Assembly: GCA_002389295.1 (NCBI GenBank)
Contig: DGOE01000041.1
Coordinates: 15,080-79,079, forward strand
From: Flavobacteriales bacterium UBA4474
GTDB taxonomy: Bacteria > Bacteroidota > Bacteroidia > Flavobacteriales_D > Sanyastnellaceae
Reading direction: 5' to 3'
Length of the DNA: 64,000 bases
The notes below the pieces were generated by a model. The model made no database searches and was not told the DNA's origin. It saw only the letters and a list, made by a program, of their open reading frames with translations. Below, in pieces: positions 277-45,521 of the stretch (positions within the stretch are counted from its first letter, which is position 1; each line of letters opens with the position of its first letter). Made by a program: the position numbers and the translations under genes.

Positions 277-3200
277 TCAGTACTTGAGGGTTACGGTTCC
301 GGTGATGGGTTGAGCACCTGGCTCCACCGAAATCACATAATAATAATCGCTGGCGGGAAGCAATGCCCCATTGAAGGTGCCGTCCCACCAAGTGGTGCCA
401 GGCTTGGACCTGAAGATCAACTGGCCCCAACGGTTAAACACTTCCACCTCGCTCTGCGGGAAGAATTCAAGTCCGCCCACGACCCAACGGTCATTGATGC
501 CGTCGCCATTGGGCGTGATGGCATCTGCTATGAAGAGGCAATCTTCGGTGGGGTCAACTGTCGCCAGGAACCCGAGCGTGCACCCGATATTGTCGGTGAC
601 GGTGACGCTGTACACGTCCTCTGGCAACCCGATGGCGGTAGCCGTCGTTTGGCCACTGGCATCGCTCCATTCGTATTGGATGGGCAATTGCCCCCCTGTG
701 ACCGCTGCCGTGACTGTACCATCGGAAGTCTGCCAACACGTCACTGGGGTGGAGAAGATTTCGACCAGCATGTCGGTCACGATGTCCGCCTCGACCATGA
801 AACTGGAGTCAGCCGTGCACCCTGCGGTATCGGCGGCAGCGACGAAGTATTCCCCCTCGAAGAGGTTGAGCACATCCACGGATCCGCCTACGAATTCCCA
901 TGCGGTTTCTCCCGACCCTCCTACAGTGCCAATGATGGCCACGCCATCGTCCATTCCGGTGCAGGTCACATTCTGTACGGTGATGTCAAACAACAACGGA
1001 TCAGGCTCTTCGATTTCCACGGTCGCCGAATCCAAACAGCCGTTCTCATCACTGAGGTACAGCGGATAGACTCCCGCGCAGAGGTTGACCAACCCGCTCG
1101 GCACCACGGCAGTGGAATCACTCACACTGCCTTCGTAAAGTGAGAGCAGCCCTGTGCCGCCTGTGAATGCAACTTCGATGCCGCCTGTGCAGTCTCCCCC
1201 GCATTCCGGAAATACGGCGGTCAAGACGTCCAAATCCACCAATTCCGGTTCGGGAATTCCAATCTCCAAACTGTCGATGCAGCCCAGTGTGTCGCCGACC
1301 ACCAGCATCAAGGAGTCGGGTCCCAGGTTCGGCAGGGTGTCGGGCAGGTTGTAGAATACAAAGGGCGAGATGAGCTCGAGGTCTCCGCTGCCTCCAAGGG
1401 CATTGACCACCAGGATACCATCAGCCGCCCCCGTGCAGGAGATCGGGGTGATGGAGGGAATGATCTGGATGGGGGCCGGTTCTTCCACGGATACTTCGTA
1501 GAAGTCACTGGTGCACCCGATGCTGTCCTGCACCAAGACGTCATAATTGCCCGCAGGGACATTGAAACAACTGCCATCCCAACTTCCGGTGGGCAGCGGC
1601 ACCAGTTGAGGTGTCAATGGTCCTGTTCCGCCTTCGAGGTCTCCCACGCAGATTTGGCCACCTGCGCCGCCACTGCACGGCACGTTCGACGCGCTGAAAG
1701 TGAACAGGATGGTGTCGGGGCCCAAGATTTCCAGTGTGTCCGTCACCAGGCATTCGTTGCCGTCCTCGGTGATGTGGATGTAGGCGCCAGGACACAACTG
1801 ACCCGATATGACCGGTGTCCCATCGAGTTGGGCCGTGGTGATGATGTAGGGCAATTCACCCCCCTCCACATCGGCCAAAATGAGCCCATTGCAATCTCCT
1901 GCGCAGGCCACATCCGTAATGGCGTATTCCACTTGCAATCCTTCGGGCTCTTCGATGACCAAGGGCTCGGTGTAAGTGCAGCCATTGTCATCGGTGATGG
2001 TAAAGGTGTACGTGCCGCTGGGCAAGCCATCCTGTTCGAAGTCGATGTTGCCGTTGAAATCAATGGTCACGGCGAGTTCTGGCACTTCAAAAACCACATT
2101 ACCTGTGCCACCCGCAGCCGAAGCGCTGAAGCTGGCATCGCTGTATCCCGTGCAGCTCACTTCCGTGGAAGACACATCAAAGAAGAGCGGTTCCGGACAG
2201 GAAATCGTGACCGTTGTATCCACGGAGCAACCGACCTGATCGGTGACGGTCAGGGTGTAATCTCCATCTCCGCCAAAACAAGAAAGCGGGCCAAAACAGT
2301 CACTGGCGTTGGGCTCGAGGATCAAGCCAAGGGCATTGGAGGCCTGTGTGGTCAATCCGCCAGATCCTCCTACTGCGGTGAAGCACACCTCTGCTTGATC
2401 CAGGTCACCACAGATGTTGTCTTGGGTCAGCGTGGCTTCCAGCTGTATCTCGTCGGGAGAAAGAAAAGCAAACACACCGGTCGTGTCACGGCACGTGTTG
2501 CTGGAGAACGCCACGGTCTGGGCCGTATCGAACAGGGCGACGAAGTAATTGCCATCAGAGATGCCATCGAAAACGGGATCGCCGACCTGCTGCTGCATCA
2601 GCGTAGTGTCGGTGCCAGTGAACTGGTAGAGGCTGTACTCCACTGATGCAGTCAATGGCTGTGCGGGGTCGTTGGGCAAGACTTGGATGGTCGCCGTCTC
2701 CCCGAAGCATTCTATTTCTTCCATTACCGTGTACTGCGGGTCCACCATGGGCTCGCAGAAGTCTCCCACTTCTACATAGCCATCCGTGCAGTACGGCGTG
2801 ACAGTCGTTCCAAGCTGCATCGCCACGCAGACCTGGAATGAAAAGGACTCACAGGTGGTGATTTGTCCAATCAGGGCGCGGCCATTTTGCACCGTCGCGT
2901 GAACGGGGTCGGCGTTGGTGACCACCAGTCCCCCTTGGACCACCTCGTCTGAACAACTGTCGAACCCCAAGGGAAACATGCCCGCTGTCTCAAATACGGT
3001 GGTACCCGGCGTTCCTTGCGCAATGTGGGTCGTCCACCACGTGTCGTAAACGATGTGAGGATCGATGGCGATGAACCCCGCATTGACGTTTGACCCCGAG
3101 TTGTATCCGTTCGGGACAAACAGAGACTCATAATTGTAGCAACCGCACGGAGCGTCAAAACCGAATCCGGGAATGACTGGAACGCTCACGTCGTCCGCCG

Positions 3201-3411
3201 CCGGGCCCAGCATCACGTGATCATCTGAGGGCAGGACAGCGTACAATCTGTAGCGGCGAAACCCAGCTGGCACATCGGCAACACCGTCATACAGTACAGT
3301 GTCCAGGACAACGTCCACCTCCAGATCATAGTTGAGCTGGGCATGAATACTGTCTCCGAGCGACAGCCCGAAAACAAGTGTGAGTAAGAGATAACTGATG
3401 TGTGCTCTCAT
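277..3411 (-). CDS. SprB-repeat cell-surface protein with type-B T9SS (gliding-motility/CHU_C) C-terminal domain
   Basis: 1044-aa ORF with signal peptide MRAHISYLLLTLVFGLSLGDSIHAQ. Many SprB-type repeats (C.G..DG.i.v...GG.g...y.w, e.g. VTCWQTSDGTVTAAVTGGQLPIQYEW). The C-terminus ITPNGDGINDRWVVGGLEFFPQSEVEVFNRWGQLIF...YYYV is the classic type-B sorting domain. Confidence 0.9.
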   Translation of the reverse strand: MRAHISYLLLTLVFGLSLGDSIHAQLNYDLEVDVVLDTVLYDGVADVPAGFRRYRLYAVLPSDDHVMLGPAADDVSVPVIPGFGFDAPCGCYNYESLFVPNGYNSGSNVNAGFIAIDPHIVYDTWWTTHIAQGTPGTTVFETAGMFPLGFDSCSDEVVQGGLVVTNADPVHATVQNGRALIGQITTCESFSFQVCVAMQLGTTVTPYCTDGYVEVGDFCEPMVDPQYTVMEEIECFGETATIQVLPNDPAQPLTASVEYSLYQFTGTDTTLMQQQVGDPVFDGISDGNYFVALFDTAQTVAFSSNTCRDTTGVFAFLSPDEIQLEATLTQDNICGDLDQAEVCFTAVGGSGGLTTQASNALGLILEPNASDCFGPLSCFGGDGDYTLTVTDQVGCSVDTTVTISCPEPLFFDVSSTEVSCTGYSDASFSASAAGGTGNVVFEVPELAVTIDFNGNIDFEQDGLPSGTYTFTITDDNGCTYTEPLVIEEPEGLQVEYAITDVACAGDCNGLILADVEGGELPYIITTAQLDGTPVISGQLCPGAYIHITEDGNECLVTDTLEILGPDTILFTFSASNVPCSGGAGGQICVGDLEGGTGPLTPQLVPLPTGSWDGSCFNVPAGNYDVLVQDSIGCTSDFYEVSVEEPAPIQIIPSITPISCTGAADGILVVNALGGSGDLELISPFVFYNLPDTLPNLGPDSLMLVVGDTLGCIDSLEIGIPEPELVDLDVLTAVFPECGGDCTGGIEVAFTGGTGLLSLYEGSVSDSTAVVPSGLVNLCAGVYPLYLSDENGCLDSATVEIEEPDPLLFDITVQNVTCTGMDDGVAIIGTVGGSGETAWEFVGGSVDVLNLFEGEYFVAAADTAGCTADSSFMVEADIVTDMLVEIFSTPVTCWQTSDGTVTAAVTGGQLPIQYEWSDASGQTTATAIGLPEDVYSVTVTDNIGCTLGFLATVDPTEDCLFIADAITPNGDGINDRWVVGGLEFFPQSEVEVFNRWGQLIFRSKPGTTWWDGTFNGALLPASDYYYVISVEPGAQPITGTVTLKY

Positions 3412-5302: not shown

Positions 5303-8300
5303 ATGTTATCCATTGCCAGATTAACGCTGCTCCGCAGTGCAGGTTTGATTGTTGCTTTTTTCTGCTTGTCCTCTTGGAGCGTTGAAGCCCAAGACACCAT
5401 ACCCGCAGCGTGGGCAGGCTCACTTTCCGGAAGCCAAATCGCCAGCTTTGAGGTGACCGCAGGATGCAGTCTGCTCTCGTTTGACATCAGCTTGGACATC
5501 GTGGCCCCCGGCAGCAATTGGGCAGGTGACATGGCCCTGGCCATTACCGCGCCCAATGGCAACCGCATCGAGGTGGGTGGCTACAATGTCAATTTCGGGT
5601 ACGTGGATGCAGGAGGCTGGCCCAGCGGGTGGAACACCAATGCAGACGGAAACTTCACCGCATCCATGACCGGGCTTGACCAATACAACCTCGCGGGGTC
5701 TGGATGCTGGCTGATTGAAGTCATGAACGCGTGGAACTCAGCCGCATCGAGCGACTATGTGATGTCCTTGGATCTGATTGGCTTGTGCAGTGAAGGAGAC
5801 TTGGAGGGCTGCACGGATCCAGCGGCGCTCAACTACAACGCTTGTGCCATGCTGGATGATGGCAGCTGCCTCTACCCCCCGCTTTCCGCCAACTTCGATT
5901 GGACATCGAGCTGTGGATTGCCCCTCACGGCCAATTTCAGTGACGAGAGCATGGGCAATGTGGTCACCTATGATTGGAGTTTTGCTGGAGGCACCCCTGC
6001 GACCAGCAGCTCGGCTTCTCCGGAGGTGGTTTGGGACGCCCCTGGAACTTTTGAAGTCACATTGACCGTGGGTGACGGCGCCGGAGGCACTTCCACCAAC
6101 ATGGGCACCATTGACGTAGGAGAAAACCTCCACCGCCTCGAAATCGACATTGTGCCCGATGGGTTTCCCCAAGAAACCTCTTTCGTCGTGGTCACCGAAG
6201 CCGGGGACACCTTGCACACCGGAGGTGCGGAAGGCCTCGATGTCTGTATCCCCGATGGGTGTGTTTCCGTGTGGATGTACGATTCGGGTGCAGATGGCTT
6301 TTCCATCGGTGGCACCTACCAAATTCGCTACGACGGCACTGTCCTGCGCGATGGTGAACACTTCGATGCGGCCCTGCTGACCCTGGTGGGTTGTCCCGAA
6401 GGAAGCAGCTGTGACAGCGCCATCGACTTGTTGTTGCCCCCCAACGGAGACACCTTGTCCTTTGTGGCCCCCTTGTCCAGCACTTGGTATTACTTCCAAG
6501 TCGATACCACGGGACAGTACCGCTTTTCCACCTGCGACTTGACCGGCTGCGACACGCGGATCCACCTGTATGATTACTGCGACATGGCGGTCTTTGAGAC
6601 TTCTTCGGAGGCCTTCATCACCATGTCGGATGACGATTGTGGCCTCCAAAGTGTGGTCACACCGGTGCTCATCTCGGGAGAGACCATCTACATCCAAATC
6701 GAAGGAGACGGCGATTGCAATGCCGGGGCCGGCGGCGTGCCTTTTGAAGCCCACTATTTGGGTGGCATCCCGGGCTGCATGAACATCGAAGCCTGCAACT
6801 ACCTGCCCATCGCGACCACCGCCGACACCTGCTATCTGGCCGGCGATCCGGAATGTCCCAACATCGGCCCCGACCTCATCATCAATGGTCCCCGGGCTTA
6901 CAGCACACTGGAGATGACGCTGGAAAACAGCTCCGACGGCTGCATGATTGAAGAGGGCTGTATTCAGGGGTATGGCTCGCGCGAAATCGTGCGCTTCGAC
7001 ACCGAAATCGCCAACATCGGCACCGAAGACTATTTCATCGGCGCCCCTTCGGCCCAGCCCGACCAATTCGAGTGGGACGCCTGTCACAACCACTACCACT
7101 ATGAGGGTTATGCCGAATACGCATTGTACGATGCCAGTGGCTCCCCCCTCCCCACCATCGGCTTCAAAAACGGTTTCTGTGTATTGGACCTGGGCAGTTG
7201 CAACTACGGCGGCGGTCCCCAGAAGTACACCTGCTCCAACATGGGCATCACCGCAGGTTGTCAGGACATATACTCCCGCTACCTCGATTGCCAATGGGTC
7301 GACATCACCGACCTCGACGCTGGGGACTACACGTTGGTCATTCGCGTGAATTGGGACTACAGCCCCGACGCCAATGGCAGCTACGAGTTGAACTACGCCA
7401 ACAATGCTGTGGCCGTCTGCTTCTCATTTGAGCGCGACGCCAGCGGTACCGCCATCAACTTCGCCAAGTATGAAGACTGCCCTGTACCGGTGGACTGCCT
7501 GGGACACCCCTTCGGCTCGGAGGAACCAGACTGTGCCGGCAACTGTCCGGGCTTTCTGGTCAAGGGCGATCTGGACCAAGACGGCGAAGTCGACGCGGAC
7601 GACCCCTTGCTCTATGCAGACTTGCTCATTGACGGGGTCGAATCTTCAGCGCCCTGCGTGGACCTCAATGGCGACGGCACGCTGAGCATCACCGATGTTG
7701 CGCTGGCCGCAGACTGCGCCCATTTGGGACACAACCACCTCGGAGACAATGGTGTGGAAGACCACTGCGATTGGAATGGGCCCTTGCTGGTGCCGGATGA
7801 GGAGGTCATGTTCTCCTTGATCCTTCCGCACGAAGACTCCAGTTTTGTCGACCTGTATGTCCACAACCCACAGACCTGGCTGAGCGGTTGGTCGGTGCAA
7901 CTCGACGGCGCTGCCTTCACGGCATTGACGCCCTTGTTTGATACCACGGGCTTTTCCCACTACTTCCACCTGTCCGCTTCGGGCATGGTCTTTGGCGTGG
8001 CCCTCGAGGACAGTTTGGTGCACAAGAGCACCCTTCCACAACCCCTCGTTCGCTTGCACTTTACAGATGCAGCGGCAGAAATCTGCATGATCGGCAATGC
8101 CGAAGTCACGAACCACGACCGCCACAACGTTGCGGCTTCCGCCACAGGTTGCATAGTCCCGGGCACCTTCTGCCTCGGCGACATCAACGACAACGGCATC
8201 CGCGATGTGGGCGACCTGCTGGTGGCCCTCGGGATTTTTGGTTGCAATACGGATTGCGGACCGGCCGATGTGGATGGGGACGGGATTGTAGGGGTCAATG

Positions 8301-8344
8301 ACCTTTTGATCATGCTCGGCCTCTTTGGAGACCCCTGTCAATAA
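5303..8344 (+). CDS. Secreted multidomain lysyl-oxidase-like copper amine oxidase with tandem dockerin-like C-terminal tail
   Basis: Signal peptide. PKD-like segment (NFSDESMGNVVTYDWSFAGG...FEVTLTVGD). PPC-like segment (SCDSAIDL...WYYFQVDTTGQYRFSTC...DTRIHLYDYC). Two GC..ACNY modules. LOX catalytic domain, internal dockerin-like pair, and a C-terminal double tail. No T9SS CTD. Confidence 0.85.
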   Translation: MLSIARLTLLRSAGLIVAFFCLSSWSVEAQDTIPAAWAGSLSGSQIASFEVTAGCSLLSFDISLDIVAPGSNWAGDMALAITAPNGNRIEVGGYNVNFGYVDAGGWPSGWNTNADGNFTASMTGLDQYNLAGSGCWLIEVMNAWNSAASSDYVMSLDLIGLCSEGDLEGCTDPAALNYNACAMLDDGSCLYPPLSANFDWTSSCGLPLTANFSDESMGNVVTYDWSFAGGTPATSSSASPEVVWDAPGTFEVTLTVGDGAGGTSTNMGTIDVGENLHRLEIDIVPDGFPQETSFVVVTEAGDTLHTGGAEGLDVCIPDGCVSVWMYDSGADGFSIGGTYQIRYDGTVLRDGEHFDAALLTLVGCPEGSSCDSAIDLLLPPNGDTLSFVAPLSSTWYYFQVDTTGQYRFSTCDLTGCDTRIHLYDYCDMAVFETSSEAFITMSDDDCGLQSVVTPVLISGETIYIQIEGDGDCNAGAGGVPFEAHYLGGIPGCMNIEACNYLPIATTADTCYLAGDPECPNIGPDLIINGPRAYSTLEMTLENSSDGCMIEEGCIQGYGSREIVRFDTEIANIGTEDYFIGAPSAQPDQFEWDACHNHYHYEGYAEYALYDASGSPLPTIGFKNGFCVLDLGSCNYGGGPQKYTCSNMGITAGCQDIYSRYLDCQWVDITDLDAGDYTLVIRVNWDYSPDANGSYELNYANNAVAVCFSFERDASGTAINFAKYEDCPVPVDCLGHPFGSEEPDCAGNCPGFLVKGDLDQDGEVDADDPLLYADLLIDGVESSAPCVDLNGDGTLSITDVALAADCAHLGHNHLGDNGVEDHCDWNGPLLVPDEEVMFSLILPHEDSSFVDLYVHNPQTWLSGWSVQLDGAAFTALTPLFDTTGFSHYFHLSASGMVFGVALEDSLVHKSTLPQPLVRLHFTDAAAEICMIGNAEVTNHDRHNVAASATGCIVPGTFCLGDINDNGIRDVGDLLVALGIFGCNTDCGPADVDGDGIVGVNDLLIMLGLFGDPCQ
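6868..7432 (+). other. Lysyl oxidase (LOX)-like catalytic domain
   Basis: PDLIINGPRAY...CMIEEGC...REIVRFDTEIANIGTEDYF...FEWDACHNHYHYEGY...IGFKNGFCVLDLGSC...GCQDIYSRYLDCQWVDITD...NYANN aligns motif-for-motif with animal LOX: WEWHSCHQHYH copper site, HKASFCLED lysine, GCYDTY tyrosine and DCQWIDITD. Confidence 0.8.
7529..7723 (+). other. Internal two-segment dockerin-like (EF-hand-like Ca-binding) module
   Basis: DCAGNCPGFLVKGDLDQDGEVDADDPLLYADLLIDG....APCVDLNGDGTLSITDVALAADCAH contains two D-x-[DN]-x-DG-x-[VIL]-x-x-x-D loop-helix segments. Confidence 0.55.
8168..8341 (+). other. Tandem Cys-bracketed dockerin-like C-terminal tail (two copies)
   Basis: FCLGDINDNGIRDVGDLLVALGIFGCNTDCGPADVDGDGIVGVNDLLIMLGLFGDPCQ* runs up to the stop codon. 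Confidence 0.7.
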
Positions 8345-8422
8345 TCCACAGGGCTTGGCGGCCAGAGGGTGCCATCAGCCTGCCCGGCTGGGCTAACTTT
8401 GGAGCGCTCCATTGAAACGCGC

Positions 8423-11400
8423 ATGGAATCTTCACAACCGAAAGACGCATCCACCTCCGCGGCCACGCGATCCGGACATCCCATCCGCATCGTTACGGCA
8501 GCTTCTCTCTTTGATGGCCATGACGCGGCCATCAACATCATGCGGCGGATCCTGCAGCGCTCGGGATGCGAGATCATCCACTTGGGCCATGACCGCTCTG
8601 TCGACGAAGTGGTGAACTGTGCCATTGAGGAGGACGCACAAGCCATTGCCATGACCTCCTACCAAGGGGGCCACATGGAGTACTTCAAGTACATGAAGGA
8701 CCTCCTGGACGAGCGCGGCGCTGGCCACATCCGCATTTTTGGCGGCGGCGGCGGCACCATCCTCCCCACGGAAATCGCGGAACTGCAGGAATACGGTATC
8801 GAGCGGATTTACCACCCTGATGACGGGCGGGAATTGGGCCTGCAGGGCATGATCGACGATGTCATCCAACGCTGCGACTTCCCCGTTGTGGGCGCGCCTT
8901 TTGGAGAGGCCGACCGGCTGAGTGAAAAGCGCCCTGGAGACCTTGCGCGGCTGATTACGGCTGCAGAGGTGGGCGCCAAGCCGTATGCCGATATCCTCGA
9001 CGGCATCAGGACAGCCGGCCAAACAGCCAACGTCCCTGTGCTGGGCATCACCGGTACCGGTGGAGCCGGTAAGAGCTCTCTGGTCGATGAACTGGTCCGC
9101 CGGTTTCTCATCGATTTTGACGACAAGCGCATGGCCATTGTGTCTGTGGACCCCTCCAAGCGCAAAACGGGCGGCGCCTTGCTCGGCGACCGCATCCGAA
9201 TGAATGCCATCGCTTCGGGGCGGGTGTACATGCGCTCTTTGGCCACGCGTCAATCCAACCTGGCACTCAGCCGCCATGTGGGCGATGCCCTCCAGATCCT
9301 GAAGGCGGCTGGATTCGACCTCATCGTGCTCGAGACCTCCGGCATTGGCCAAAGCGATACGGAGATCATGGAGCACAGCGATGTGGCCCTGTATGTCATG
9401 ACCCCTGAATTCGGGGCGGCCACGCAGCTCGAAAAGATCGACATGCTCGACTTCGCCGACGTGGTGGCGATCAACAAGTTTGACAAGCGCGGCGGCGCCG
9501 ATGCCCTGCGCGACGTGCGCAAGCAATACAAGCGCAACCACGAACTGTGGGAGGCCCAAGACGGGGACCTGCCCATCTTTGGCACCATTGCTTCGCAGTT
9601 CAACGACCCCGGAACCCACCGTTTGTACCGGACATTGATGAACGCCCTCTCGGAAAAGACCGGAGCTGTGCTGGCGAGCACCTTTGGTGCCGACGCCGGA
9701 GAGAGCGAAAAGGTTCATGTGATTCCGCCAAAACGGACGCGGTACTTGAGCGAAATCGCCGATGGCATCCGTGCCTACAACGATTGGACGGATGCCCAAG
9801 CTGCGCTTGCCGGAAAACTGCAGGCCCTGCGGATCGCACGCGCTGAACTGGCCGATACGGATGCCGATACGCTCCTGGCGGCGAAGGCGGAAGGGCTTAC
9901 ACGGGAACTTGACCCCAAGAACCTGCACTGGCTCGAAACATGGCCGGAGGAGGCCGACCGCTATCGCAATGCGGAGTACATCTTCGAAGTGCGGGGCAAG
10001 GAAATCCGGATCCCTACGACCACCAAGAGCCTGAGTCACCAGGACATCCCCAAGGTCAGCGTGCCTCGGCTCACCGGATGGCGCGACCTGTTGCGTTGGG
10101 GCCTGCAGGAAAACGTGCCCGGCGCTTTTCCCTTTACAGCCGGTATCTATCCCTTCAAGCGCCAAGGCGAAGACCCCACCCGCATGTTTGCCGGCGAGGG
10201 CGGACCGGAGCGAACGAATCGGCGGTTCCACTATGTCTCTGGAGACATGCCGGCCAAACGGCTGTCTACAGCGTTTGATTCCGTCACCCTTTACGGGCGC
10301 GATCCGGACCTGCGGCCCGATATCCATGGAAAGGTGGGCAACTCCGGGGTGAGCGTTTGTTCCCTCGACGATGCCAAGCGCCTTTACAGCGGTTTTGACC
10401 TCTGCGACCCCTCTACCAGTGTGTCGATGACCATCAACGGTCCGGCGCCCATGGTGTTGGCCTTCTTCCTCAACGCCGCCATCGACCAGCGCTGCGAGAA
10501 GTACATCCGTGCGCATGGATTGGAAGCCGAGGTGGAAGCCGTGCTCAAGGCCCGATGGGACGACCAGGGCCTCTCCCGCCCGGTCTACCGCGGTGCCTTG
10601 CCCGAGGGCAATGACGGATTGGGGCTGCTCCTGCTCGGGTGCACCGGTGATGAAGTGCTCGATGCCAAAACCTACGCCCCTTTGGCTGCCGAAGCGCTGT
10701 CCCAGGTGCGCGGCACTGTGCAGGCCGACATCCTCAAGGAGGACCAGGCCCAAAACACCTGCATTTTCTCTACCGAGTTTGCCTTGCGGCTCATGGGCGA
10801 TGTGCAGTCTTACTTTATTGACCAGAAAGTCCGCAATTTCTATTCGGTCTCGATTTCTGGCTACCACATCGCAGAGGCGGGGGCCAACCCCATCACGCAG
10901 CTCGCCTTTACCCTAGCCAACGGCTTTACTTATGTGGAGTATTACCTGAGCCGGGGCATGGACATCAACCACTTTGGACCCAACCTCAGCTTCTTCTTCT
11001 CCAATGGCATCGATCCGGAATATGCGGTGATTGGCCGCGTCGCCCGGCGCATTTGGGCCAAGGCCATGGACAAGAAGTACGGTGCAGATGAGCGGGCCCA
11101 AAAGCTCAAGTACCACATCCAGACCAGTGGCCGCTCCCTGCACGCGCAAGAAATCGACTTCAACGATATCCGCACGACGCTGCAGGCCCTCTACGCCATT
11201 TACGACAACTGCAACTCCCTGCACACCAACGCCTTTGACGAGGCCATCACCACACCTACCGAGGGCAGCGTCCGGCGGGCCATTGCCATTCAGCTCATCA
11301 TCAACCGGGAGTTGGGGCTGGCCAAAAACGAAAACCCGCTGCAGGGCGCCTTCATCATCGAGGAACTCACCGACCTGGTCGAGGAAGCGGTGATGGTGGA

Positions 11401-11809
11401 ATTCGATAGACTCACCGAACGCGGCGGGGTGCTCGGCGCCATGGAAACCATGTACCAGCGCAGCCGCATCCAAGAGGAGAGCCTGCACTATGAGACGCTG
11501 AAGCACACGGGCGAGTACCCCATCATCGGGGTGAATACCTTCCTGTCCAAGGAGGGCTCCCCCACCATTGTGCCGGGCGAAGTCATCCGCGCCACGCCGG
11601 AAGAGAAGCAGGGCCAAATCGACGGTCTTGCGGCGCTGCACAGCGCCCATGGCGACCGGACGGAAGCTGCCCTGGAAAATGTGCGGCGCATTGCTGTAGA
11701 ACACGGCAATCTGTTTGCCGAGTTGATGGAAGCGGTGAAGTCCTGCTCGCTGGGGCAATTGACCGAAGCGATGTTTGAAGTGGGCGGCGCCTACCGCCGC
11801 AACATGTGA
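8423..11809 (+). CDS. icmF: Fused isobutyryl-CoA mutase IcmF (B12-binding domain + MeaB-like GTPase + mutase catalytic domain)
   Basis: N-terminal B12 domain ([22 protein letters not shown], DxHxxG). P-loop G-protein ([24 protein letters not shown]). Large C-terminal methylmalonyl/isobutyryl-CoA-mutase-type TIM barrel. About 1128 aa from the ATG at 8423 (MESSQPKD). Confidence 0.9.
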
Positions 11810-13973: not shown

Positions 13974-14831
13974 ATGTCACGTGGCTTGGTCTTTATGTTG
14001 CAGTCGGTGGTGCTCTACACCTCCGCCAACCTGCTGGTCAAGGCCCTCGCGGTCCTTCCGACGCCGCAATTGGTCTTCCTGCGCAGCGTCATCAGCCTGT
14101 TTTTTTGCGTCATCTGGCTCTGGAGAAAGGGCCAACCGCTGTGGGGTCACAACCGCAAATGGCTGGTCGTCCGGGGCGTGATGGGCATGATCGGGTTGAC
14201 CTTGTTTTTCCATATCATCCGGCACATCCCGCTGGCCAGCGCCACGGTCATCCAGTACCTCTCCCCCATTTTCACGGTGCTGCTGGCCATCCTGTTTGAC
14301 GGTCAGCGGATCAAGACCCACCGCTGGGTCTACTTCGCCGCAGCCTTTGGCGGCGTGCTGATGGTGAAGGGCTTTGATCCACGTGTCTCTTGGCTTTACC
14401 TGGCCATGGGCGTGGGCAGCGCTTTGGCCGCCGCTGTGGCCTACCTCGCCACCATCAAGTGCCGCGAGACCGACAGCCCCGTCGGGATTGTCGCCTATTT
14501 CCACCTGATTGCCACCCCCATCATGGGCACGTGGAGCGCCGCGGTGTGGCACCCCATGACGGCCAGCCAATGGGGCATGGCCCTGGGAATCGGGGGGCTT
14601 TCGTTGCTCGCTCAGGTGGCGATGACCAAGGCTTTGCACCTGGAAGATGCAGCCCGCGTGATGCCGTTCAAATATTTCGGCGCCTTGCTCGCACTGGGGC
14701 TGGCTTGGATCTTGTTCGATGAAAAAATCACCGGCTGGGCCTTGGTCGGCATCGGCGTGGTCTTGGCCGCTGTGACCGCCAACACCATCGCCGGAAAGCG
14801 CAAGCCGCCCGCAGTGGTCAGCGCACCGTGA
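13974..14831 (+). CDS. DMT-superfamily (EamA-like) transporter
   Basis: About 10 TM helices in two EamA-type halves. Start placed at MSRGLVFMLQSVVLYTSANLLVKAL (13974) because the upstream ORF extension overlaps the previous gene. Confidence 0.8.
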   Translation: MSRGLVFMLQSVVLYTSANLLVKALAVLPTPQLVFLRSVISLFFCVIWLWRKGQPLWGHNRKWLVVRGVMGMIGLTLFFHIIRHIPLASATVIQYLSPIFTVLLAILFDGQRIKTHRWVYFAAAFGGVLMVKGFDPRVSWLYLAMGVGSALAAAVAYLATIKCRETDSPVGIVAYFHLIATPIMGTWSAAVWHPMTASQWGMALGIGGLSLLAQVAMTKALHLEDAARVMPFKYFGALLALGLAWILFDEKITGWALVGIGVVLAAVTANTIAGKRKPPAVVSAP

Positions 14832-17256
14832 CGCGGCGCGTGTGCTCCAATGTGGCGCCTCCGGGAACCGTCTGCACCACTTGCAACAGGTAAGCTCCAG
14901 GCACGCGGCCTGCCGTTGAAAGGGCCATTTGACGCCCTCCCGTCCATTGTTCGCGGGCAACGATGCGCCCGGTCAAATCCAACCAACGTACCGCTGCGCC
15001 GTCCAACACTCCCCCGCCAAAGGACAACCGCAGCGGCTCTCCGGCCTGCACGGGGTTGGGGCTCACCGAGAACGTGGGCCCTGCCACGATGCCGCCGATG
15101 CCGTTGACTGTGGCACAGGGGTCTACGAGGTAAGGCACTGCGTTTTGGTACATGTCGTTCACGACTTCGGTGATGCCGTTGATGCAAAGCTCCGTCTCGG
15201 GTGCCTGGGTCCAGTAAATCCGGCACAAAGGCGTCCACTCATAGTGCTTGGACATGGAGGCGTTGTCATAGCTCAAACCAATGAGGGTATTGCCGCCCAA
15301 CGCATGCTCCGGTTGGATCATGTACTCCAGCGGATCGGTCAGGCTGACAGCCTGCTGAATGCCACAGCTGACATCGAACTGGTAACCGAGGATGCGGTTG
15401 TGCGGATTGAGCACCTGGACGTCAAAGAAGCCCTGCGCCCAGTTGACCTCCCCAAGCTTGAACCACACGCTGTCATAGGGATTCACCACATGGGGTGCCG
15501 GAAACTGGCACTTGTCATGGAATCCTGAGCTGTCGGGGTTGCTGTGGGCAATGTCCCAATATTGGCAACGCGCCATCAAGGCCGCATCGGATACCGTCAG
15601 CTCTCCATCCTGGTCCAGGTCGTTGCATGGTGCGGCTTGAAGGTCATTGCCCAAGATGCCATCCACATAGGCCTCCGCATCGGTGAGGTCCTGGTCGGCA
15701 TCGGCGTCGAGGTCCCCCATGAGGGCCGTGCCGCCGCAATCCCCCATGCAATCCATCTGTGCTGTTCCGTAAGGCTCTCCCGTGCAATCCACCAGTTGGT
15801 CGCAGTCGTCCCAAACATCCACCTGCAGTTCACCCGAGGTGCGGTCCATGTTGATGCAGACCACGCCCCAGTTGTTTTCGTAGTCGTTCTCCTGGCGGCC
15901 CAGCGCATCGGGGCTGTAGTCCCAATTCACCCGTACCACGAGGTGGTACAGGCCATCTGGAATGCCCGTTACATCGATCCATTGGCAGGAAAGCCCTGCG
16001 CCGTAGATGTCACCGCAATGGGCCGAAATGCCCATGTTGCTGCAGCCGTATTGGAAGGTGCCGCCGTCGCTGCATTCGAGGTCCATGACGCAGAATCCGT
16101 TTTTGAACCCGATGGGCAACATCTGGCCCTCCATGGTGAAGAGGTCGTATTTCGCATAGCCCTTGTAGTGCCAGTGGTTGTGACACTCTCCCCATTCGAA
16201 CTGCTGGGTCGAATCGCTCTGGGCGGTGGTGCCGATGTAGTAATCGATGTCGCCGATGTTTTTGATGTGGGTGGTAAAACGCACCAGTTCCCGCTCGCCG
16301 TAGCCGTTGAGACAACCTTCCACGATGTAGCAGTTGTTTTCGTCGACCATCATGGTCTCAGCCTGCAAGCTGTTCTCGATGGCGCTCTCCACCACCATGA
16401 GGTCAGGCCCCGTGCAGAGTGGATCGCCCGGGTAAACACAGCTTCCGTTGTCCAATTCCGCTGCCGGGTTGTAGTTGCACGCTTCGTCATCGGTACATCC
16501 CTCTGGTGGTCCGACATAGTTCAAGCTCCAATCGAAACCGCTGCAGTCACCCGTTAGGTTGGCAAAACGCACCCAATAGGTCACGCCACCCTCGAGCAAG
16601 ACGAGCAGCTGCGCACTTTCCACATTGTCTTCGCACCCCCCTTGATTGTCATCGTAGTAGATCGACCCTTCATTGGTGTCGTCGAAGTTGTTCATGTTGC
16701 AGTAATCGTAGATCCACAGGCGCGTATCGCACCCCGACCCACAGCTGGTCAATGCGTACATGCCGTTCTGCCCCGGCGTAAACGTCCACCACTCCACATT
16801 TTCTCCCGCCGTCACCTGCAGGGGGTCTTCTCCAAGCTCCAGGAGGATGGCCTCGTTGCAGGTCCAGCCTGGAGGGCAATCAATGGCGTGGCTTTGTCCG
16901 TAACCGTAGTTTCCGCTGCCTTGGACGAGCAATTCACCGTCCAACAACACCTGGTAATATGCGTCACCGACAAGGCCATCACCGTAGGTGTCGTTCATGG
17001 TGAACACCATGCAGTCCTCCCAATCTGCCGTGTCCACGCAGAATGTGTAGAGCGTATCGTTGGCGTCGGCCACATCTGCCTCGAGCAGGATGTCTCCCGA
17101 GCCATTGGTCAGGTCCCAGCTCATTTCATAAGGCCACGCATCGGGTGCGATGATGACGGAAAAGGTGTGCTGATCGTCTGCACAGTCCTGCCCGCAGATG
17201 GCAGAACAAAAAAGAAATGCAGCAATGAGTAAGGGAACCCGGGTGGCGAATGACAT
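14818..17256 (-). CDS. Secreted lysyl-oxidase-like copper amine oxidase with type-A T9SS C-terminal domain
   Basis: Paralogue of 5303..8344 with the same module order: signal peptide, D.W.YE.SW...DTYGDG module, PPC-like segment, GCTDDEACNYNPAAELDNGSCVY, LOX domain, dockerin-like pair, conserved beta-rich region. It ends in a Por-type CTD (FSVSPNPVQAGEPLRLSF...GAYLLQVV...RRVTVR). Confidence 0.85.
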   Translation of the reverse strand: MSFATRVPLLIAAFLFCSAICGQDCADDQHTFSVIIAPDAWPYEMSWDLTNGSGDILLEADVADANDTLYTFCVDTADWEDCMVFTMNDTYGDGLVGDAYYQVLLDGELLVQGSGNYGYGQSHAIDCPPGWTCNEAILLELGEDPLQVTAGENVEWWTFTPGQNGMYALTSCGSGCDTRLWIYDYCNMNNFDDTNEGSIYYDDNQGGCEDNVESAQLLVLLEGGVTYWVRFANLTGDCSGFDWSLNYVGPPEGCTDDEACNYNPAAELDNGSCVYPGDPLCTGPDLMVVESAIENSLQAETMMVDENNCYIVEGCLNGYGERELVRFTTHIKNIGDIDYYIGTTAQSDSTQQFEWGECHNHWHYKGYAKYDLFTMEGQMLPIGFKNGFCVMDLECSDGGTFQYGCSNMGISAHCGDIYGAGLSCQWIDVTGIPDGLYHLVVRVNWDYSPDALGRQENDYENNWGVVCINMDRTSGELQVDVWDDCDQLVDCTGEPYGTAQMDCMGDCGGTALMGDLDADADQDLTDAEAYVDGILGNDLQAAPCNDLDQDGELTVSDAALMARCQYWDIAHSNPDSSGFHDKCQFPAPHVVNPYDSVWFKLGEVNWAQGFFDVQVLNPHNRILGYQFDVSCGIQQAVSLTDPLEYMIQPEHALGGNTLIGLSYDNASMSKHYEWTPLCRIYWTQAPETELCINGITEVVNDMYQNAVPYLVDPCATVNGIGGIVAGPTFSVSPNPVQAGEPLRLSFGGGVLDGAAVRWLDLTGRIVAREQWTGGRQMALSTAGRVPGAYLLQVVQTVPGGATLEHTRRVTVR
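15844..16410 (-). other. Lysyl oxidase (LOX)-like catalytic domain
   Basis: PDLMVVESA...CYIVEGC...RELVRFTTHIKNIGDIDYY...FEWGECHNHWHYKGY...IGFKNGFCVMDLECS...HCGDIYGAGLSCQWIDVTG...DYENN. The His triad, the lysine and the tyrosine are all conserved. Confidence 0.8.
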
Positions 17257-20942: not shown

Positions 20943-22865
20943 TCAATTCAGCTGCAGACGGACTGCTGTCTCTGTGCCCTCGGCCACCCAGAGGTATTGG
21001 CCGGCGCTGAGACCGGAAGCAGACAATTCGAACTGCAGGGCACCCTGCAATGCCCGCGCTTGACCCTTTTCAATGATGCGGCCTGAGGCATCGCGCAAGG
21101 ACCAACTCCCCGCCCAATCCGCAGGCACCTGGCTCCACATGATGGTCCAACTTCCTCCCGGCGCAGCTGGATTGGGAAAAGCCTGCACTGAAGGTGCCGC
21201 GCTGTCCCATTCGCCCAAGCCGAGGGTGCAATCGAAAACGGTGACGAAAATGGCATCGGCATGCGAACAGCCAAATGCGTTGGATGCTTCGACGACAATG
21301 GGATAGGTTCCCGGTCCCAAATCAGCCCCATTTATGATGATGAATTGGTCTGCACTGCCGTTGCTCCAGAGGTACTCCAGGCCAGCAGGCGCAGAAAGCA
21401 CCAGCTGTTGGTCTTCGCAAATGGTGGTGTCGGGGCCCAGGGTGAAGGCAAAGGCGTCGTCCTCAGCCTGGAGGTCAAACTGGATTTCCTCTATACACCC
21501 GTTGCCGTCCTCCATGACCACTGTGAAGGCCCCTTCGGCCATGTCGTCAATGGCTGGCCCCGTGCCAAGTTCACCGAGTTCACCGGACCATGTGATGGAA
21601 TAAGGCTCCGTACCTCCGCTCACCGCCAAGGCGGCACTGCCGTTGGGCTGGTCGGGGCAACCGGGTGGCACCAGATCAAGGTCCAGGGAAATGGGGTCGG
21701 GTTGGGTCAAGGTCACCGCGTGGGTCAACGTGTTGCCACAGTTGGTCACGATCACGGCAGAATAGGTGCCCCCGCTCAAACCAGAAATCTGCTGGCCCTC
21801 GCCGGAAAATCCATCGGGGCCGATCCAAGCCGCAGTGAAATCCGCCCCCATGCCGATGGGATTCAACACGATCGTTCCGTTGGGGTCCTCCTCCTTGCCC
21901 AGTGGGCAACCAAGGCCTCCGGTGACGCTGGTCATCTCTTCGGCCAGGTCCGAACTCGTCTCGACCACGATTCCGACTGTTCCCCGCGCATTTTGCCACC
22001 CATCCACTTGGATGAGGTAGGTGGCGCCGCTGTCCAGACAGCCCGTCCACATTGAACTGGCATAATAGGCTCCTGAACCGCAGCCTCCGGGCATGTCGTC
22101 ATTGGCCCCCACGAGGGTGAATGTGGTGAAATCGCTGCAGTCTTCCGCCTTCCACAAGGCTATCTGCGTATCGAAATCGGTGGTGTCCGTGCACGCCGTC
22201 ACCAGGCAGTTGCCCGCGGTGGCCGTAAAGGACAGCCAGGCCGACCCCGTCACACCGCCTTCGCACCATCCGCCATTGATTTGGCAAGCATACACGCCGG
22301 GAAAATTGGGTGCACCAGGCTCGCCATAAGCGGCCGTGCAGCTGTCGTTTGAGACGATGGCCATGGGGCCGTCCACCACGACTTCTTCGGCACCACAGGG
22401 CGAATCATAAGCCGGTCCAGACATTTCGAAGGGATTGAAATCCCAGGTGTTTCCAAAGCCAGACCCGGGGAAGCTGTTGGTCAGCACGCCTTCATTGTAC
22501 ACTTCGAAATAAGTGCCCCCGTCCCCGTAGCTGTCCACGTGGTGCAGGGTCAGCACCTCATCCGGTGTGCCGCACAAGGTGTCCAGGATAAAGGTGGCAT
22601 TCGAAGCGTATTCGCCTGCGGGCGCCCCGGGCAGTCCCTCTCCGTCGCAGCCTACACCGGCCGCATTGCCTCCCCAATACAGGGCATCCACACCACACGC
22701 ACCGCCTTCTGGCGTGATCTCCCAATACATCTCATAGCCCCAGGCATCTGTATACAGGCGCAATTCAAACGGTGATTGGCCTTCAGGACAGTCTTGACTG
22801 AACGCATTCATGCCAGCTGTGCAGGACAGCATCAGCAAAAAGACCACTGGGGTTGAGGATTTCAT
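20943..22865 (-). CDS. Secreted SprB-repeat protein with type-A T9SS C-terminal domain
   Basis: True start [24 protein letters not shown] at 22865; the 811-aa ORF extension would overlap yaaA. N-terminal D.WGYEMYW...DSYGDGG module, PPC-like segment, SprB repeat ([30 protein letters not shown]). CTD is [14 protein letters not shown]...GQYLWV...VRLQLN. Confidence 0.85.
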
Positions 22866-22916
22866 GGCCGAAAAATAGGGCATTGCGCACATGGCATTCC
22901 GTAGCTTTGCGGGCCC

Positions 22917-23687
22917 ATGCGCTTTTTGCTTTCTCCTGCAAAGACATTTAGGACCGAAGCCCTGCCTGTGGTGGCCGGTGCCAGCCAACCTGTTTTTGTT
23001 GATCGGGCAGCCACCATCATGGAGGACTTGTCTCTTGTAAAGGAGCGGGACCTTATGGCGCACATGGACATCAGTGAGGCGTTGGCAGAAGAAACCGCTG
23101 CGCGGCACCAAGAATGGGGCACCCCCTTCCACCCCGGAAATGCCCGAGCGGCCATCCATTCTTTTCACGGTGAGGTCTACCGCGCTTTGGGTGCAGACCG
23201 CTGGAATGCCAACAACTTGGACCAAGCGCAAAGCATGATGCGCATCATCAGCGGTCTGTATGGCTTGCTCAGGCCATTGGACCTGATGCAGGAATACCGC
23301 TTGGAAATGGGCAGCCGCTGGTCTCCAAATGGAAAAGACAACCTCTATGCCTATTGGGGAACCGCGCTCGCCGACCATTTAGCGGCTGAAAGTGACGGTC
23401 CCATTGTCAACTTGGCCAGTCAGGAATATTTCAAAGCAGTGGACCACCCTTCGCTCAAGGGTAAGTTCATTCATATCCATTTCAAGGAGCAGCGAGGCGA
23501 CACCTTCAAAATGATCGGCACTTATGCCAAAACAGCGCGGGGCCGCATGGCGCGTTTCTTGGTGCAGGATGGCATCTCTTCACCCGAGGACATTCAGCAT
23601 TTCAATGAAGATGGTTATGCCTTTAACCCCAGCCTGAGTGGAGAGGACGCCTTTACTTTCACACGACATCATACACCCAACCCATGA
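22917..23687 (+). CDS. yaaA: Peroxide stress protein YaaA (UPF0246/DUF328)
   Basis: MRFLLSPAKTF start, GEVYRAL, RIISGLYGLLRPLDLMQEYRLEM, and NLASQEYFKAV. These are the hallmark YaaA motifs. Confidence 0.9.
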   Translation: MRFLLSPAKTFRTEALPVVAGASQPVFVDRAATIMEDLSLVKERDLMAHMDISEALAEETAARHQEWGTPFHPGNARAAIHSFHGEVYRALGADRWNANNLDQAQSMMRIISGLYGLLRPLDLMQEYRLEMGSRWSPNGKDNLYAYWGTALADHLAAESDGPIVNLASQEYFKAVDHPSLKGKFIHIHFKEQRGDTFKMIGTYAKTARGRMARFLVQDGISSPEDIQHFNEDGYAFNPSLSGEDAFTFTRHHTPNP

Positions 23688-24456: not shown

Positions 24457-24597
24457 ATCAGCCTTTTCGTTGGCTGATTATACAGTACATGTGGATTTAA
24501 TGTAAGTGGTTGAAAAACAATAACAAGACACATTTCTCAGGCAAAATGTAACCCCAACTTGCGCATCGGAGTAAGGGTGCCAAACAACCTGCCCATC

Positions 24598-27500: not shown

Positions 27501-28191
27501 CGACAATGCCGAGATCCCCGGATGCACCGATGTGTCCGCGTGCAACTATGATGCGGCCGCCACCGATGAGAACGGCGCATGTGAATACCCCGAAGTCGGA
27601 TTTGACTGCGATGGCAATCCCTTGGTCATTGTCGAGGGCTGCACGGACCCCGGCAGCTGCACCTTTGATGCCGACGCCAATTCAGACGATGGCAGCTGCG
27701 AATACCTCGATGCCTTGGGTGAATGCGGCGGCGATTGCACAGCCGACCTCGATGAAGATGGCGTGTGTGACGATGCAGAAATTCTGGGCTGCACGGATAC
27801 TGAGGCTTGCAATTTTGACGAAGCGGCCACCGAAGAAAACGGCGGCTGCGAATACGCCGCTGAGGGCTTTGACTGCGATGGCAATCCGCTGACAAGTGGC
27901 GTCGGTGAAATCAGTGACGCCGCAGAGTCAATCAGCGCCTACCCCAACCCCGTGCTTCAAGGTGCACCGGTTCAATTGGCCGGTCTGACCGGTACAGGCC
28001 CGTGGACCATCGAAATTTGGAACGCTGCAGGACAGTGCGTGGCAAGGAACCAAGCCGTGGCCGCTCCAAGCTTGAATGGGTGGACCGCCACCGTGAATAC
28101 GCCGTCCATGCCCGGTCTATATTTCATCCGCGCCCAACGCTTAGGCGACAACAGTGTGCCTACGGCTGCTGGCCGACTGCTGGTACATTGA
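24598..28191 (+). CDS. Secreted M43-family (cytophagalysin/pappalysin-like) zinc metalloprotease with Cys-module array and type-A T9SS CTD
   Basis: Signal peptide MRIPVFFLTVFASLSFCTGYSQ. Zincin site TITHEMGHYLGLFHTF followed by C..GDRVCDTPP. Twelve 3-Cys modules in six super-repeats. CTD is ISAYPNPVLQGAPVQLAGL...GLYFIRAQ...GRLLVH. Confidence 0.9.
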   Translation: MRIPVFFLTVFASLSFCTGYSQADRCQSAELQATLMEDSAFSRSYFAFEAAMADMQPNTQRSSLTHTLPVVVHIMHDGAPIGDGSNLSDAQVFSAIDGLNDDFSAQFAGVDIDIEFQLAVQDPDGNPTSGIVRTNVAETIPSYATSGMVTMNNLDPAAELLVKQLSHWPGEDYINIWVVHKLNGAASPLGFAYLPPTSGVHDGIVVHRRVFGVGEDFDLMQNFDLNRTITHEMGHYLGLFHTFNNTSSCADESNCSAQGDRVCDTPPTTGSVGCSPVSCPNTLVENYMDYSSDACMDSFTEGQRTRMRNALDVFRTSLLTSSGNIPVMAIDGGISSLTGIQEYGCASTINTQALLQNFGTDELTSASIHFMLDDGMEQELTWSGSLLSGETELVDLPSLAATTGAHTISIWSGIDGDGYGPNDTLVVSFEISSGDFIEMEVQLDMLPYGFTWEIENVDNGNILMSGGPYDNSTDAGGLFLESQCAVTGCYELTVEDIFGNGLHYTPSGFYSLTDSDGNVLGYNWGNFGGYQLHEFCIDGDGVEPCVDDNGNGICDEDEDIVITDVPGCTDAGSCTYDAEANTDDGSCQYLDALGDCGGDCPDDLDADGVCDNAEIPGCTDENACNFDGAATDDAGNCSYPPTNYDCDGNVTVVIEGCLDEASCTYDASANANTDDGSCAYLDALGDCGGDCPDDVDGDGVCDNAEIPGCTDFTACNFEAGATDDNGGCLYPEPDLDCNGNPLVVIEGCMDPASCTYDAAANTNDDSCEYLDAIGVCGGDCPGDADTDGVCDNAEIAGCTDSQACNYDASATDDAGNCSYPPTNFDCDGNITVVVNGCLDASSCTFDADANTDDGSCDYLDALGECGGDCPDDVDGDGVCDNAEIPGCTDVSACNYDATATDENGGCEYPETGLDCAGNPLVIVEGCTDASSCTFDAAANTDDGSCEYLDALGECGGDCPADVDGDGVCDNAEIPGCTDVSACNYDAAATDENGACEYPEVGFDCDGNPLVIVEGCTDPGSCTFDADANSDDGSCEYLDALGECGGDCTADLDEDGVCDDAEILGCTDTEACNFDEAATEENGGCEYAAEGFDCDGNPLTSGVGEISDAAESISAYPNPVLQGAPVQLAGLTGTGPWTIEIWNAAGQCVARNQAVAAPSLNGWTATVNTPSMPGLYFIRAQRLGDNSVPTAAGRLLVH
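26293..27900 (+). repeat. Six in-frame tandem repeats of 267-273 bp (89-91 aa) inside the M43 gene
   Basis: Unit starts at about 26296, 26563, 26836, 27103, 27370 and 27637. Each unit is [GC.D..SCT[YF]D..AN.DDGSC.YLDA.G.CGGDC..D.D.DGVCDNAEI.GCTD..ACN[YF][DE]..ATD..G.C.YP....DC.GN.LV]. The last three units are about 90% identical at the DNA level by eye. Confidence 0.9.
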
Positions 28192-39632: not shown

Positions 39633-39817
39633 TGGGTTTGGGTTACAGTTTGGTTCTTTCCAAGAACGAGCAATATAGTCCGAGAAGGTGTACTTCATAC
39701 ACCAAGTGCATATTCTTGGGAATAACTTGGGTATTATCAGGAAGCAATGGCCATTTAATGGTTGTGTACCATCCGTCAATACAGCGGCACAGTCTTTTTC
39801 GAAATGGACCTCGACGT

Positions 39818-45451: not shown

Positions 45452-45521
45452 GGTAACCTGAAGATACGAACCAACCCCTGCGCGAGCCGCAGACCAAGAG
45501 GTGATTTTTGTCACTGCTGTC

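Follow-up and report, generated by a model that had tools for sequence, protein, structure and literature searches.

The 64,000-nucleotide stretch of DNA analysed here (the window: positions 15,080 to 79,079 of contig DGOE01000041.1 in the GenBank assembly GCA_002389295.1 of Flavobacteriales bacterium UBA4474; G+C content about 57%) encodes two lysyl oxidase paralogues with signal peptides, which we call LOX1 and LOX2. In both of them the oxidase domain is followed by a dockerin homologue and, directly after it, by a module, rich in beta structure and about 135 amino acids long, that is predicted to adopt the cohesin fold. We hold with moderate confidence that these two parts constitute a conserved, disulfide-rich and calcium-binding dockerin–cohesin didomain, which would be packed in cis and act as a rigid connector in lysyl oxidases exported by a secretion system of type IX (T9SS), while the dockerin-type tails at the C-termini of LOX1 and of three other proteins in the window would represent a separate anchoring signal. 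As far as we could find, such a fused, lysyl oxidase-specific didomain combined with a T9SS C-terminal domain (CTD) is undescribed.

LOX1 is encoded on the plus strand at 5303..8344, where an open reading frame (ORF) of 1013 amino acids specifies a signal peptide, an N-terminal domain, a PKD domain (residues 202-267, Pfam), the lysyl oxidase catalytic domain (6965..7432, residues 555-710), the internal dockerin (7529..7723), the cohesin-fold beta-sandwich module (7763..8155, residues 821-951) and a C-terminal two-repeat, cysteine-bracketed (GC-type) dockerin tail (8165..8341). LOX2 is encoded on the minus strand at 14818..17256, and its 812 residues comprise a signal peptide, N-terminal domains, the catalytic domain (residues 318-467), the internal dockerin segment (15526..15774, residues 495-577), the cohesin-fold module (15109..15513, residues 582-716) and a predicted, divergent type-A T9SS CTD (14821..15093, residues 722-812), an order of domains that corresponds to the canonical architecture of the family described below. 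Pfam Lysyl_oxidase (PF01186; cut-off 20.4 bits) recognises both paralogues, with 109.7 bits in LOX1 (E = 1.9e-31) and 103.8 bits in LOX2, and the HNHYH/HNHWH, GFKNGFC and DIY...CQW motifs are intact in the two proteins. From what is known of animal lysyl oxidases, we take the HxHxH motif to be the copper site and the lysine and tyrosine motifs to be the precursors of the lysine tyrosylquinone cofactor.

Downstream of the LOX domains, the dockerin and beta regions of LOX1 and LOX2 align with 27% identity over 179 residues (E = 4e-16). Because of this E value we regard the resemblance as homology and not as chance, which agrees with the first-pass annotation of this DNA, where the modules of both paralogues had been described as mutually alignable. 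The peptides quoted there could also be located: 7529..8165 on the plus strand reads DCAGNCPGFLVKGDLDQDG...CIVPG inside the ORF 5303..8344, and the peptides of the minus-strand copy are present in the ORF 14818..17256, although the approximate range given for them, 15103..15755, does not keep to the reading frame as written. A related-locus search with the full LOX2 protein yielded orthologues with identities of up to 87%, nearly all of them in uncultured Flavobacteriales/Crocinitomicaceae metagenome-assembled genomes (MAGs). Some contigs with clear LOX2 orthologues of the Flavobacteriales type are found in MAGs labelled Nitrosopumilus, Comamonadaceae and Luminiphilus (L010, L024, L036 and L053), which are probably binning contaminants.

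A dockerin repeat comprises about 22 residues, a Ca2+-binding loop and then a helix, and two tandem repeats of this kind (DxNxDGxxxxxD loops, each with its helix) are visible behind the LOX domain of both paralogues. In LOX1 they come after a CxxxC lead-in and read GDLDQDGEVDADD... and VDLNGDGTLSITD..., respectively; in LOX2, the segment delimited by the family dockerin-segment hidden Markov model (HMM; 103.7 bits) takes in the CxxxC lead-in and some of the linker, the dockerin proper covering approximately residues 514-571. Taken alone, the LOX1 segment matched Pfam Dockerin_1 (PF00404) with 22.6 bits (E = 1.3e-4), the gathering cut-off being 22.9, and the LOX2 segment alone gave no Pfam match. 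The segment at the same place, 5' of the module, exceeded the cut-off in the relatives P0008 (46.6 bits), P0014 (33.0 bits) and P0016 (25.9 bits), and Dockerin_1 was matched by 32 of the 46 aligned family members at E <= 1. Moreover, a profile built from these 46 members retrieved only dockerins when run against all PDB sequences, the best being CelS of Clostridium thermocellum (1daq/2mte, with E = 1.9e-4 for 1daq), in addition to the C. cellulolyticus dockerin 2vn6 and, weakly, the Clostridium perfringens dockerin 2jnk/2ozn. On these profile matches the internal segment is a dockerin homologue, and the dockerin-like pair that had been noticed at first reading is upheld. Loop positions 1, 3, 5 and 12 are kept in both repeats throughout the family (D33 in 100% and D64 in 97% of the alignment), AlphaFold2 places helices at residues 32-42 and 62-74, and these helices are strongly conserved (ITVxDAALL). 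The internal dockerin is predicted to bind Ca2+.

The beta module that follows is recognised by the family module HMM with 105.2 bits in LOX1 and 151.4 bits in LOX2, and at the sequence level it showed no similarity to cohesins. The isolated modules matched nothing in Pfam and NCBIfam at E <= 10, Pfam Cohesin (PF00963) was found in none of the 46 aligned members and none of 58 full-length relatives, and the family profile did not find any cohesin among the PDB sequences. When the family alignment was compared by hhalign with three CipA cohesins, whose sequences had been checked against 1aoh, 2ccl and 3kcp, the probability was 0.1%, a weak negative given the narrowness of that cohesin profile. 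The structural comparison gave a different picture. An AlphaFold2 model of the dockerin plus module, computed from the 46-sequence alignment over 222 residues, reached a mean predicted local distance difference test score (pLDDT) of 90.4 and a predicted template modelling score (pTM) of 0.86, and in a Foldseek search of this model against the PDB ranks 1 to 10 were all cohesins (E = 5.4e-7 to 1.2e-4, probability 1.00). The best match was CohA2 of Clostridium acetobutylicum (6kgc_A, E = 5.4e-7; also 6kgd) and the third best the non-cellulosomal cohesin 2xdh of Archaeoglobus fulgidus, while ScaB Coh6 of Acetivibrio cellulolyticus, ScaB Coh5 of Ruminococcus flavefaciens and cohesin-like modules of C. 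perfringens were also among the top cohesins (entries 5nrm_A, 5n5p, 2jh2, 2vo8 and 2w1n), so that types I, II and III as well as non-cellulosomal representatives are covered. The target-normalised TM scores of these matches were moderate (0.49-0.61), at identities of 10-17%; non-cohesin sandwiches, namely an adhesin CLIPPER domain, a carbohydrate-binding module (CBM) and integrin domains, had E values worse by 1-3 orders of magnitude.

The structural matches being cohesins and the sequence signal being absent, we designate the module as cohesin-fold: it is predicted to share the fold, and it is not a member of the Pfam Cohesin family. Hence the cohesin-like character proposed by the first-pass annotation holds for the fold but not for the sequence. 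The cohesin fold is described as a nine-stranded beta-sandwich in which the dockerin binds the 8-3-6-5 sheet. In the LOX family, two strands carry conserved residues on their two faces (GYQF and PLxRVYY, with R183 in 96%). LOX2 holds the consensus of these strands (YQF and CRIYW), and LOX1 departs from it at about 7880..7906 and 8042..8062 on the plus strand, with WSV for YQF and LVRLHF for LxRVYY; the module of LOX1, the paralogue with the GC-type tail, may therefore have an altered contact surface.

The family was opened when the beta module served as query in an exhaustive HMMER search, which resulted in 210 cluster representatives (clusters at 50% identity); a word-indexed protein search retrieved 7 close fragments only, with a single sequence and with the 46-sequence profile alike. 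Among the 98 modules with enough upstream sequence, 97 carry the dockerin directly 5' of the module, and the same count revealed no dockerin of the LOX-family type without a module. Lysyl_oxidase was detected in all 58 full-length relatives scanned and Por_Secre_tail in 50 of them. In the locus comparisons, which covered the 64-kb window and 66 related loci and counted paralogues within 10-kb flanks, every module match lies inside a LOX protein. Module matches came from 60 sources (the window and 59 loci), of which 41 have the CTD form alone, 15 both paralogues and 2 the GC-tail form alone. The dockerin-module unit is present in 1, 2 or 6 copies in relatives, two in P0016 and six in P0008, a protein of 1936 residues from outside the window in which LOX, six tandem units and Por_Secre_tail succeed one another with no flexible linkers. 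This array could be likened to a scaffoldin or to a stalk. Public records name these proteins, those of the window included, either 'hypothetical' or 'PKD repeat protein'.

Across this family, which is Bacteroidota-wide and consists of exported lysyl oxidases, the unit invariably comes after the catalytic domain. Each unit is built from the CxxxC lead-in, the two-repeat dockerin homologue, a linker that is short and structured (HxHCxFP) and the cohesin-fold beta-sandwich. Of 97 units, 94 have all 7 cysteines, as would suit an extracellular module with disulfide bonds; for the very reason that the cysteines are near-invariant, patterns of their loss gave no disulfide partners. In the model, the linker takes the form of a hairpin (pLDDT about 90). 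A pTM of 0.86 over 222 residues implies that, in the model, dockerin, linker hairpin and sandwich form one rigid body, as we estimate a value of about 0.65 for a freely moving dockerin; since 0.86 is by this estimate too high for freely linked domains, the dockerin is likely to be packed in cis. A constant intramolecular contact would also fit the conserved GYQF/PLxRVYY surface. Taken together, the architecture counts, the cysteines, the pTM and the conserved surface argue for a fixed, LOX-specific and self-contained didomain.

We next consider what follows the didomain. The last 91 residues of LOX2 matched neither the Pfam (PF18962) nor the NCBIfam (TIGR04183) CTD model. However, 75-105 residues follow the module in 98 of 146 family representatives, and against a profile of the family C-termini LOX2 scores 28.6 bits; Pfam Por_Secre_tail recognises 37 of 39 aligned family C-termini, in which PNP, G and GxY are invariant, LOX2 included. 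LOX2 is thereby assigned, on its alignment, a probable divergent type-A T9SS CTD, as had been suggested at first reading. Cargo with type-A CTDs is covalently anchored or released, which varies among Bacteroidota, and many Flavobacteria release it. The window encodes other likely T9SS cargo as well: at 277..3411 (minus strand) a protein that combines SprB repeats with a type-B CHU_C T9SS domain, and a second SprB-repeat protein at 20943..23378 (minus strand) with a type-A-like CTD, its C-terminus scoring 22.9 bits against the type-A CTD profile.

In the explanation that we favour, the dockerin would pack in cis on its own cohesin-like module, and the packed pair would be a rigid, Ca2+-stabilised didomain that connects the oxidase to, and spaces it from, a C-terminal addressing element. 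Two kinds of address would be in use, a type-A T9SS CTD (LOX2 and about 85% of relatives) and a two-repeat cysteine-bracketed GC-type dockerin (LOX1), and the copy number of the didomain (1, 2 or 6) would vary as in stalk domains. The tails of LOX1 and of the three other proteins would be an anchoring or sorting element of their own, for which the LOX-borne module is one candidate receptor only.

The four tails in the window are cysteine-bracketed dockerin-type repeats that end 1-2 residues before the stop codon. That of LOX1 has two Ca-loop/helix repeats, with four cysteines invariant in a 9-sequence alignment, and AlphaFold2, applied to the part of LOX1 that reaches from the dockerin up to its stop codon, folds it as two helices (pLDDT about 85). 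The other three, identified by translation and motif scan, are single repeats of 28-29 amino acids, all on the minus strand: CPTDIDGDGATAVGDLLIVLGAFGQACE at 34575..34658, CPFDTTGDGLIGAADLVDFLSSFDSTCP at 41268..41351 and CSFDTDDNGLIGSADLLVFLSLYGQPCGE at 43712..43798. When the window and the 66 related loci were scanned for the tail motif, 31 of 31 matches lay no more than 2 residues from a stop codon, and with a stricter motif 29 of 29 lay within 5 residues of one. As all motif matches adjoin stop codons, the tail is a true C-terminal element. The double tail of LOX1 resembles the NCBIfam family NF041540 (dockerin_GC) with 19.8 bits (E = 7.7e-4) and the single tail at 41268..41351 with 17.5 bits (E = 0.0041), both under the curated cut-off of 29, and these two tails have the FGxxC ending in common with NF041540; the remaining two single tails did not match NF041540. 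This is a likeness in sequence, and by the curated cut-off the window tails do not belong to the GC-type dockerins. A tail profile search returned 173 similar tails, many of them with precomputed Pfam Dockerin_1 assignments. Dockerin-like tails on LOX1 and three further proteins, as first annotated, are thus borne out by translation, by resemblance to NF041540, by their consistently C-terminal position and by Dockerin_1 on homologues. Two-repeat cysteine-bracketed tails like that of LOX1 are also borne by fragments recorded under the name of Planctomycetota/Phycisphaerae MAG proteins (P0225, P0229, P0266 and P0293), and by these names the tail type appears not to be confined to Bacteroidota. 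The T9SS is not known from Planctomycetota. Our literature search on the GC-type dockerin family NF041540 found no paper.

The three proteins with single-repeat tails are of two kinds. The first, at 34572..39779 (minus strand), is a secreted giant of about 1700 residues with an N-terminal plastocyanin/azurin-type copper domain (cupredoxin) and many starch-binding-type modules (CBM20, CBM48, AMPK1_CBM, X25), in which Pfam detected no catalytic domain. The others, at 41265..43568 and 43709..45514 (both minus strand), are adjacent, paralogous secreted proteins with 'TYRVYA...FYQDxxGG...AYDSW' repeat domains (YRxYA proteins), which Pfam does not recognise save for a weak match to a MopE copper motif.

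One alternative, put forward by the first-pass annotation, is that the cohesin-like module of LOX2, displayed on the cell surface through the T9SS, captures LOX1, the cupredoxin-CBM giant and the two YRxYA proteins in trans by their tails, so that a non-cellulosomal assembly would form on the surface. The module does have the predicted cohesin fold, the tails are of dockerin type (the two NF041540 resemblances at E = 7.7e-4 and 4.1e-3, and Dockerin_1 on many homologous tails) and sit at the extreme C-terminus like the dockerins of enzymes, and the four tail genes share the 64-kb window with the two module genes. Both LOX paralogues occur within 10 kb of each other in 15 of 60 sources. In addition, R. 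flavefaciens single-loop dockerins bind cohesins (PMC12270676), and for Cloacimonadota there is a proposal of a scaffoldin anchored by a CTD (PMC8542988). On the other hand, each module comes with a cis dockerin of its own that is predicted to be rigidly packed, so that the binding site may already be occupied; the module is confined to LOX proteins and is never part of a free-standing scaffold; and one module per anchor would face at least four cargo proteins in the window. The model of the LOX1 dockerin, cohesin module and tail likewise offers little encouragement, as its pTM was 0.76 compared with 0.86 when the tail was left out; we estimate about 0.72 for a free and 0.85 for a docked tail, and the tail was not placed confidently on its own module, an arrangement that concerns intramolecular docking only. 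Moreover, the same type of tail is found on the Planctomycetota/Phycisphaerae fragments, from a phylum not known to have a T9SS, no way through the outer membrane is known for proteins with a tail and no CTD, and cargo with a type-A CTD is in many cases released and not anchored. We therefore judge capture in trans to be rather unlikely.

Head-to-tail self-assembly is a further alternative, in which the dockerin of one LOX would bind the module of another, so that LOX oligomers or chains would grow on the copy that has the CTD anchor, with LOX1 joining LOX2. It would account for the invariable presence of dockerin and cohesin-fold module in one polypeptide and for the high conservation of both the dockerin helices (ITVxDAALL) and the GYQF/PLxRVYY strands, and paralogues with different C-terminal addresses stand side by side in the 15 of 60 sources mentioned above. 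A. fulgidus proteins carry a cohesin as well as a dockerin and may recognise themselves, and among the structural matches of the module the non-cellulosomal cohesin 2xdh of this species ranks third. Nevertheless, the pTM of 0.86 and the short, structured and conserved linker favour a unit packed in cis, and most sources (41 of 60) have a single LOX gene in the 10-kb flanks, which makes self-assembly unlikely in our view.

It might also be argued that the module is a generic beta-sandwich, either substrate-binding or an immunoglobulin-like domain preceding the CTD, whose likeness to cohesins is convergent or remote, and that the 'dockerin' is an EF-hand-type Ca2+ stabiliser. The lack of Pfam Cohesin matches (0 of 46 and 0 of 58), the hhalign probability of 0.1% against CipA cohesins, the absence of cohesins among the PDB sequences found by profile, and TM scores of only 0.5-0.6 at 10-17% identity, with the adhesin CLIPPER domain and a CBM close behind, are all in keeping with it. 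Yet the ten best structural matches are cohesins without exception, with E values 1-3 orders better than those of other sandwiches, and in 97 of 98 cases the module is joined to a true homologue of dockerins, which can hardly be put down to coincidence; we find a generic sandwich similarly improbable. Finally, that in marine Flavobacteriales the CTD-less proteins with 28-residue, cysteine-bracketed single-repeat tails bind the module of a CTD-bearing LOX and are in this way retained at the surface, or exported piggy-back across the outer membrane by the T9SS, seems to us quite unlikely; it would amount to surface assembly and piggy-back export based on cohesin and dockerin in a diderm.

The cis-packed connector is itself not free of difficulties. 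The argument for packing in cis comes from the pTM alone, and in the model the dockerin may sit on the canonical 8-3-6-5 face or elsewhere. The tandem array of cohesin-fold modules in front of the cell-surface anchor of P0008 also looks like a scaffoldin, and the presence of four tail-bearing genes together with two module-bearing ones in 64 kb is a hint that they are functionally linked. Cohesin binding by dockerins with a single loop is known (PMC12270676). Besides, all the support is computational and the organism, a marine bacterium, is uncultured.

As regards the surroundings of the two LOX genes, operon logic for the pair was rejected, as the genes between and around them are housekeeping genes (an IcmF-like mutase, a sulfotransferase, an aminotransferase and an S46 peptidase). 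The gene directly 3' of LOX1 (8369..11809, plus strand) encodes the IcmF-like fusion, composed of a B12-binding domain, a MeaB GTPase and a methylmalonyl-CoA mutase, and is a housekeeping gene with no relation to the didomain. An M43-family metallopeptidase of 1210 residues, likely secreted, is encoded at 24559..28191 (plus strand). A cysteine motif of about 22 residues, C[TL]Dxx(A)xNYxxxAxxDDGSCxY, recurs between the domains of several secreted proteins of the window: it is found at 5924..5989 (plus strand) in LOX1, at about 16432..16497 (minus strand) in LOX2, in at least 3 copies in the cupredoxin-CBM giant (34575..39779, minus strand) and in 2 copies in the tail-bearing protein at 43712..45514 (minus strand). 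Its appearance is that of a small linker module with a disulfide bond, common to the secreted proteins of this organism.

These analyses define a widespread and hitherto unannotated domain family (210 clusters at 50% identity) and extend cohesin-dockerin biology into Bacteroidota, onto lysyl oxidase and into a fused, disulfide-stapled form. A self-docked didomain would provide a natural case of an intramolecular cohesin-dockerin pair that serves as a rigid building block, which could be of interest for protein engineering. If, instead, tails were bound in trans, this would amount to a route of surface assembly in T9SS bacteria for which we found no prior description, and it would explain the localisation of dockerin-tailed proteins without a CTD. 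Under either reading, the short cysteine-bracketed C-terminal tails merit study as a sorting or anchoring signal.

Several known systems bear comparison with the one described here. The LOX domain itself has already been reported in Bacteroidetes by Grau-Bove et al. 2015 (PMC4448552), who found prokaryotic LOX to be mostly single-domain by Pfam and made no mention of a dockerin-cohesin didomain or a T9SS CTD. The tails can be compared with NF041540, annotated as 'GC-type dockerin domain-anchored protein', to which the LOX1 tail and one single tail are weakly alike, below the cut-off. The group-2 dockerins of R. flavefaciens, which are naturally truncated, C-terminal and equipped with a single Ca2+ loop, have been shown to bind cohesins (PMC12270676) and set a precedent for functional 28-residue tails, although theirs is a Gram-positive cellulosome and their loops lack bracketing cysteines. 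In Candidatus Stygibacter (Cloacimonadota), a T9SS-CTD-anchored scaffoldin and dockerin-bearing enzymes have been inferred in silico (PMC8542988), and the novelty that the first-pass annotation had claimed for a T9SS-plus-cohesin/dockerin arrangement needs to be softened to this extent. That scaffoldin is a non-catalytic protein of 3,755 residues with tandem, InterPro-recognised cohesins and CBMs, in contrast to the single, unrecognised module inside an enzyme in LOX, and both the proposal and the LOX system are known from sequence and prediction alone.

With the cellulosome (CipA of C. thermocellum, CohA2 of C. acetobutylicum), the LOX system shares the fold of the module, the repeat architecture of the dockerin and dockerins as C-terminal tails, and the relative P0008, with six modules before a cell-surface anchor, adds to this likeness. 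In contrast to the cellulosome, the LOX module shows no cohesin signal at the sequence level, has its own cis dockerin and comes without flexible linkers rich in Pro/Thr; its host is a diderm, and the carriers of the module are amine oxidases and not scaffolds of carbohydrate-active enzymes. Nor does the window encode a scaffoldin of the cellulosomal kind, as it has only two cohesin-fold modules, both inside enzymes with their own dockerin. The non-cellulosomal systems, that is, the GH84/GH33 toxin complexes of C. perfringens and the A. fulgidus proteins, differ from the LOX didomain in several respects: the LOX modules are adjacent, joined by a short, conserved and structured linker, rich in cysteine and always found on lysyl oxidase, and they occur in Bacteroidota together with a T9SS CTD and go unrecognised by Pfam Cohesin. 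What they have in common is a cohesin-fold sandwich and a two-repeat Ca2+ dockerin on secreted proteins that are not cellulolytic, and the structures of these non-cellulosomal systems (2xdh, 2jh2, 2vo8 and 2w1n) are among the best fold matches of the LOX module.

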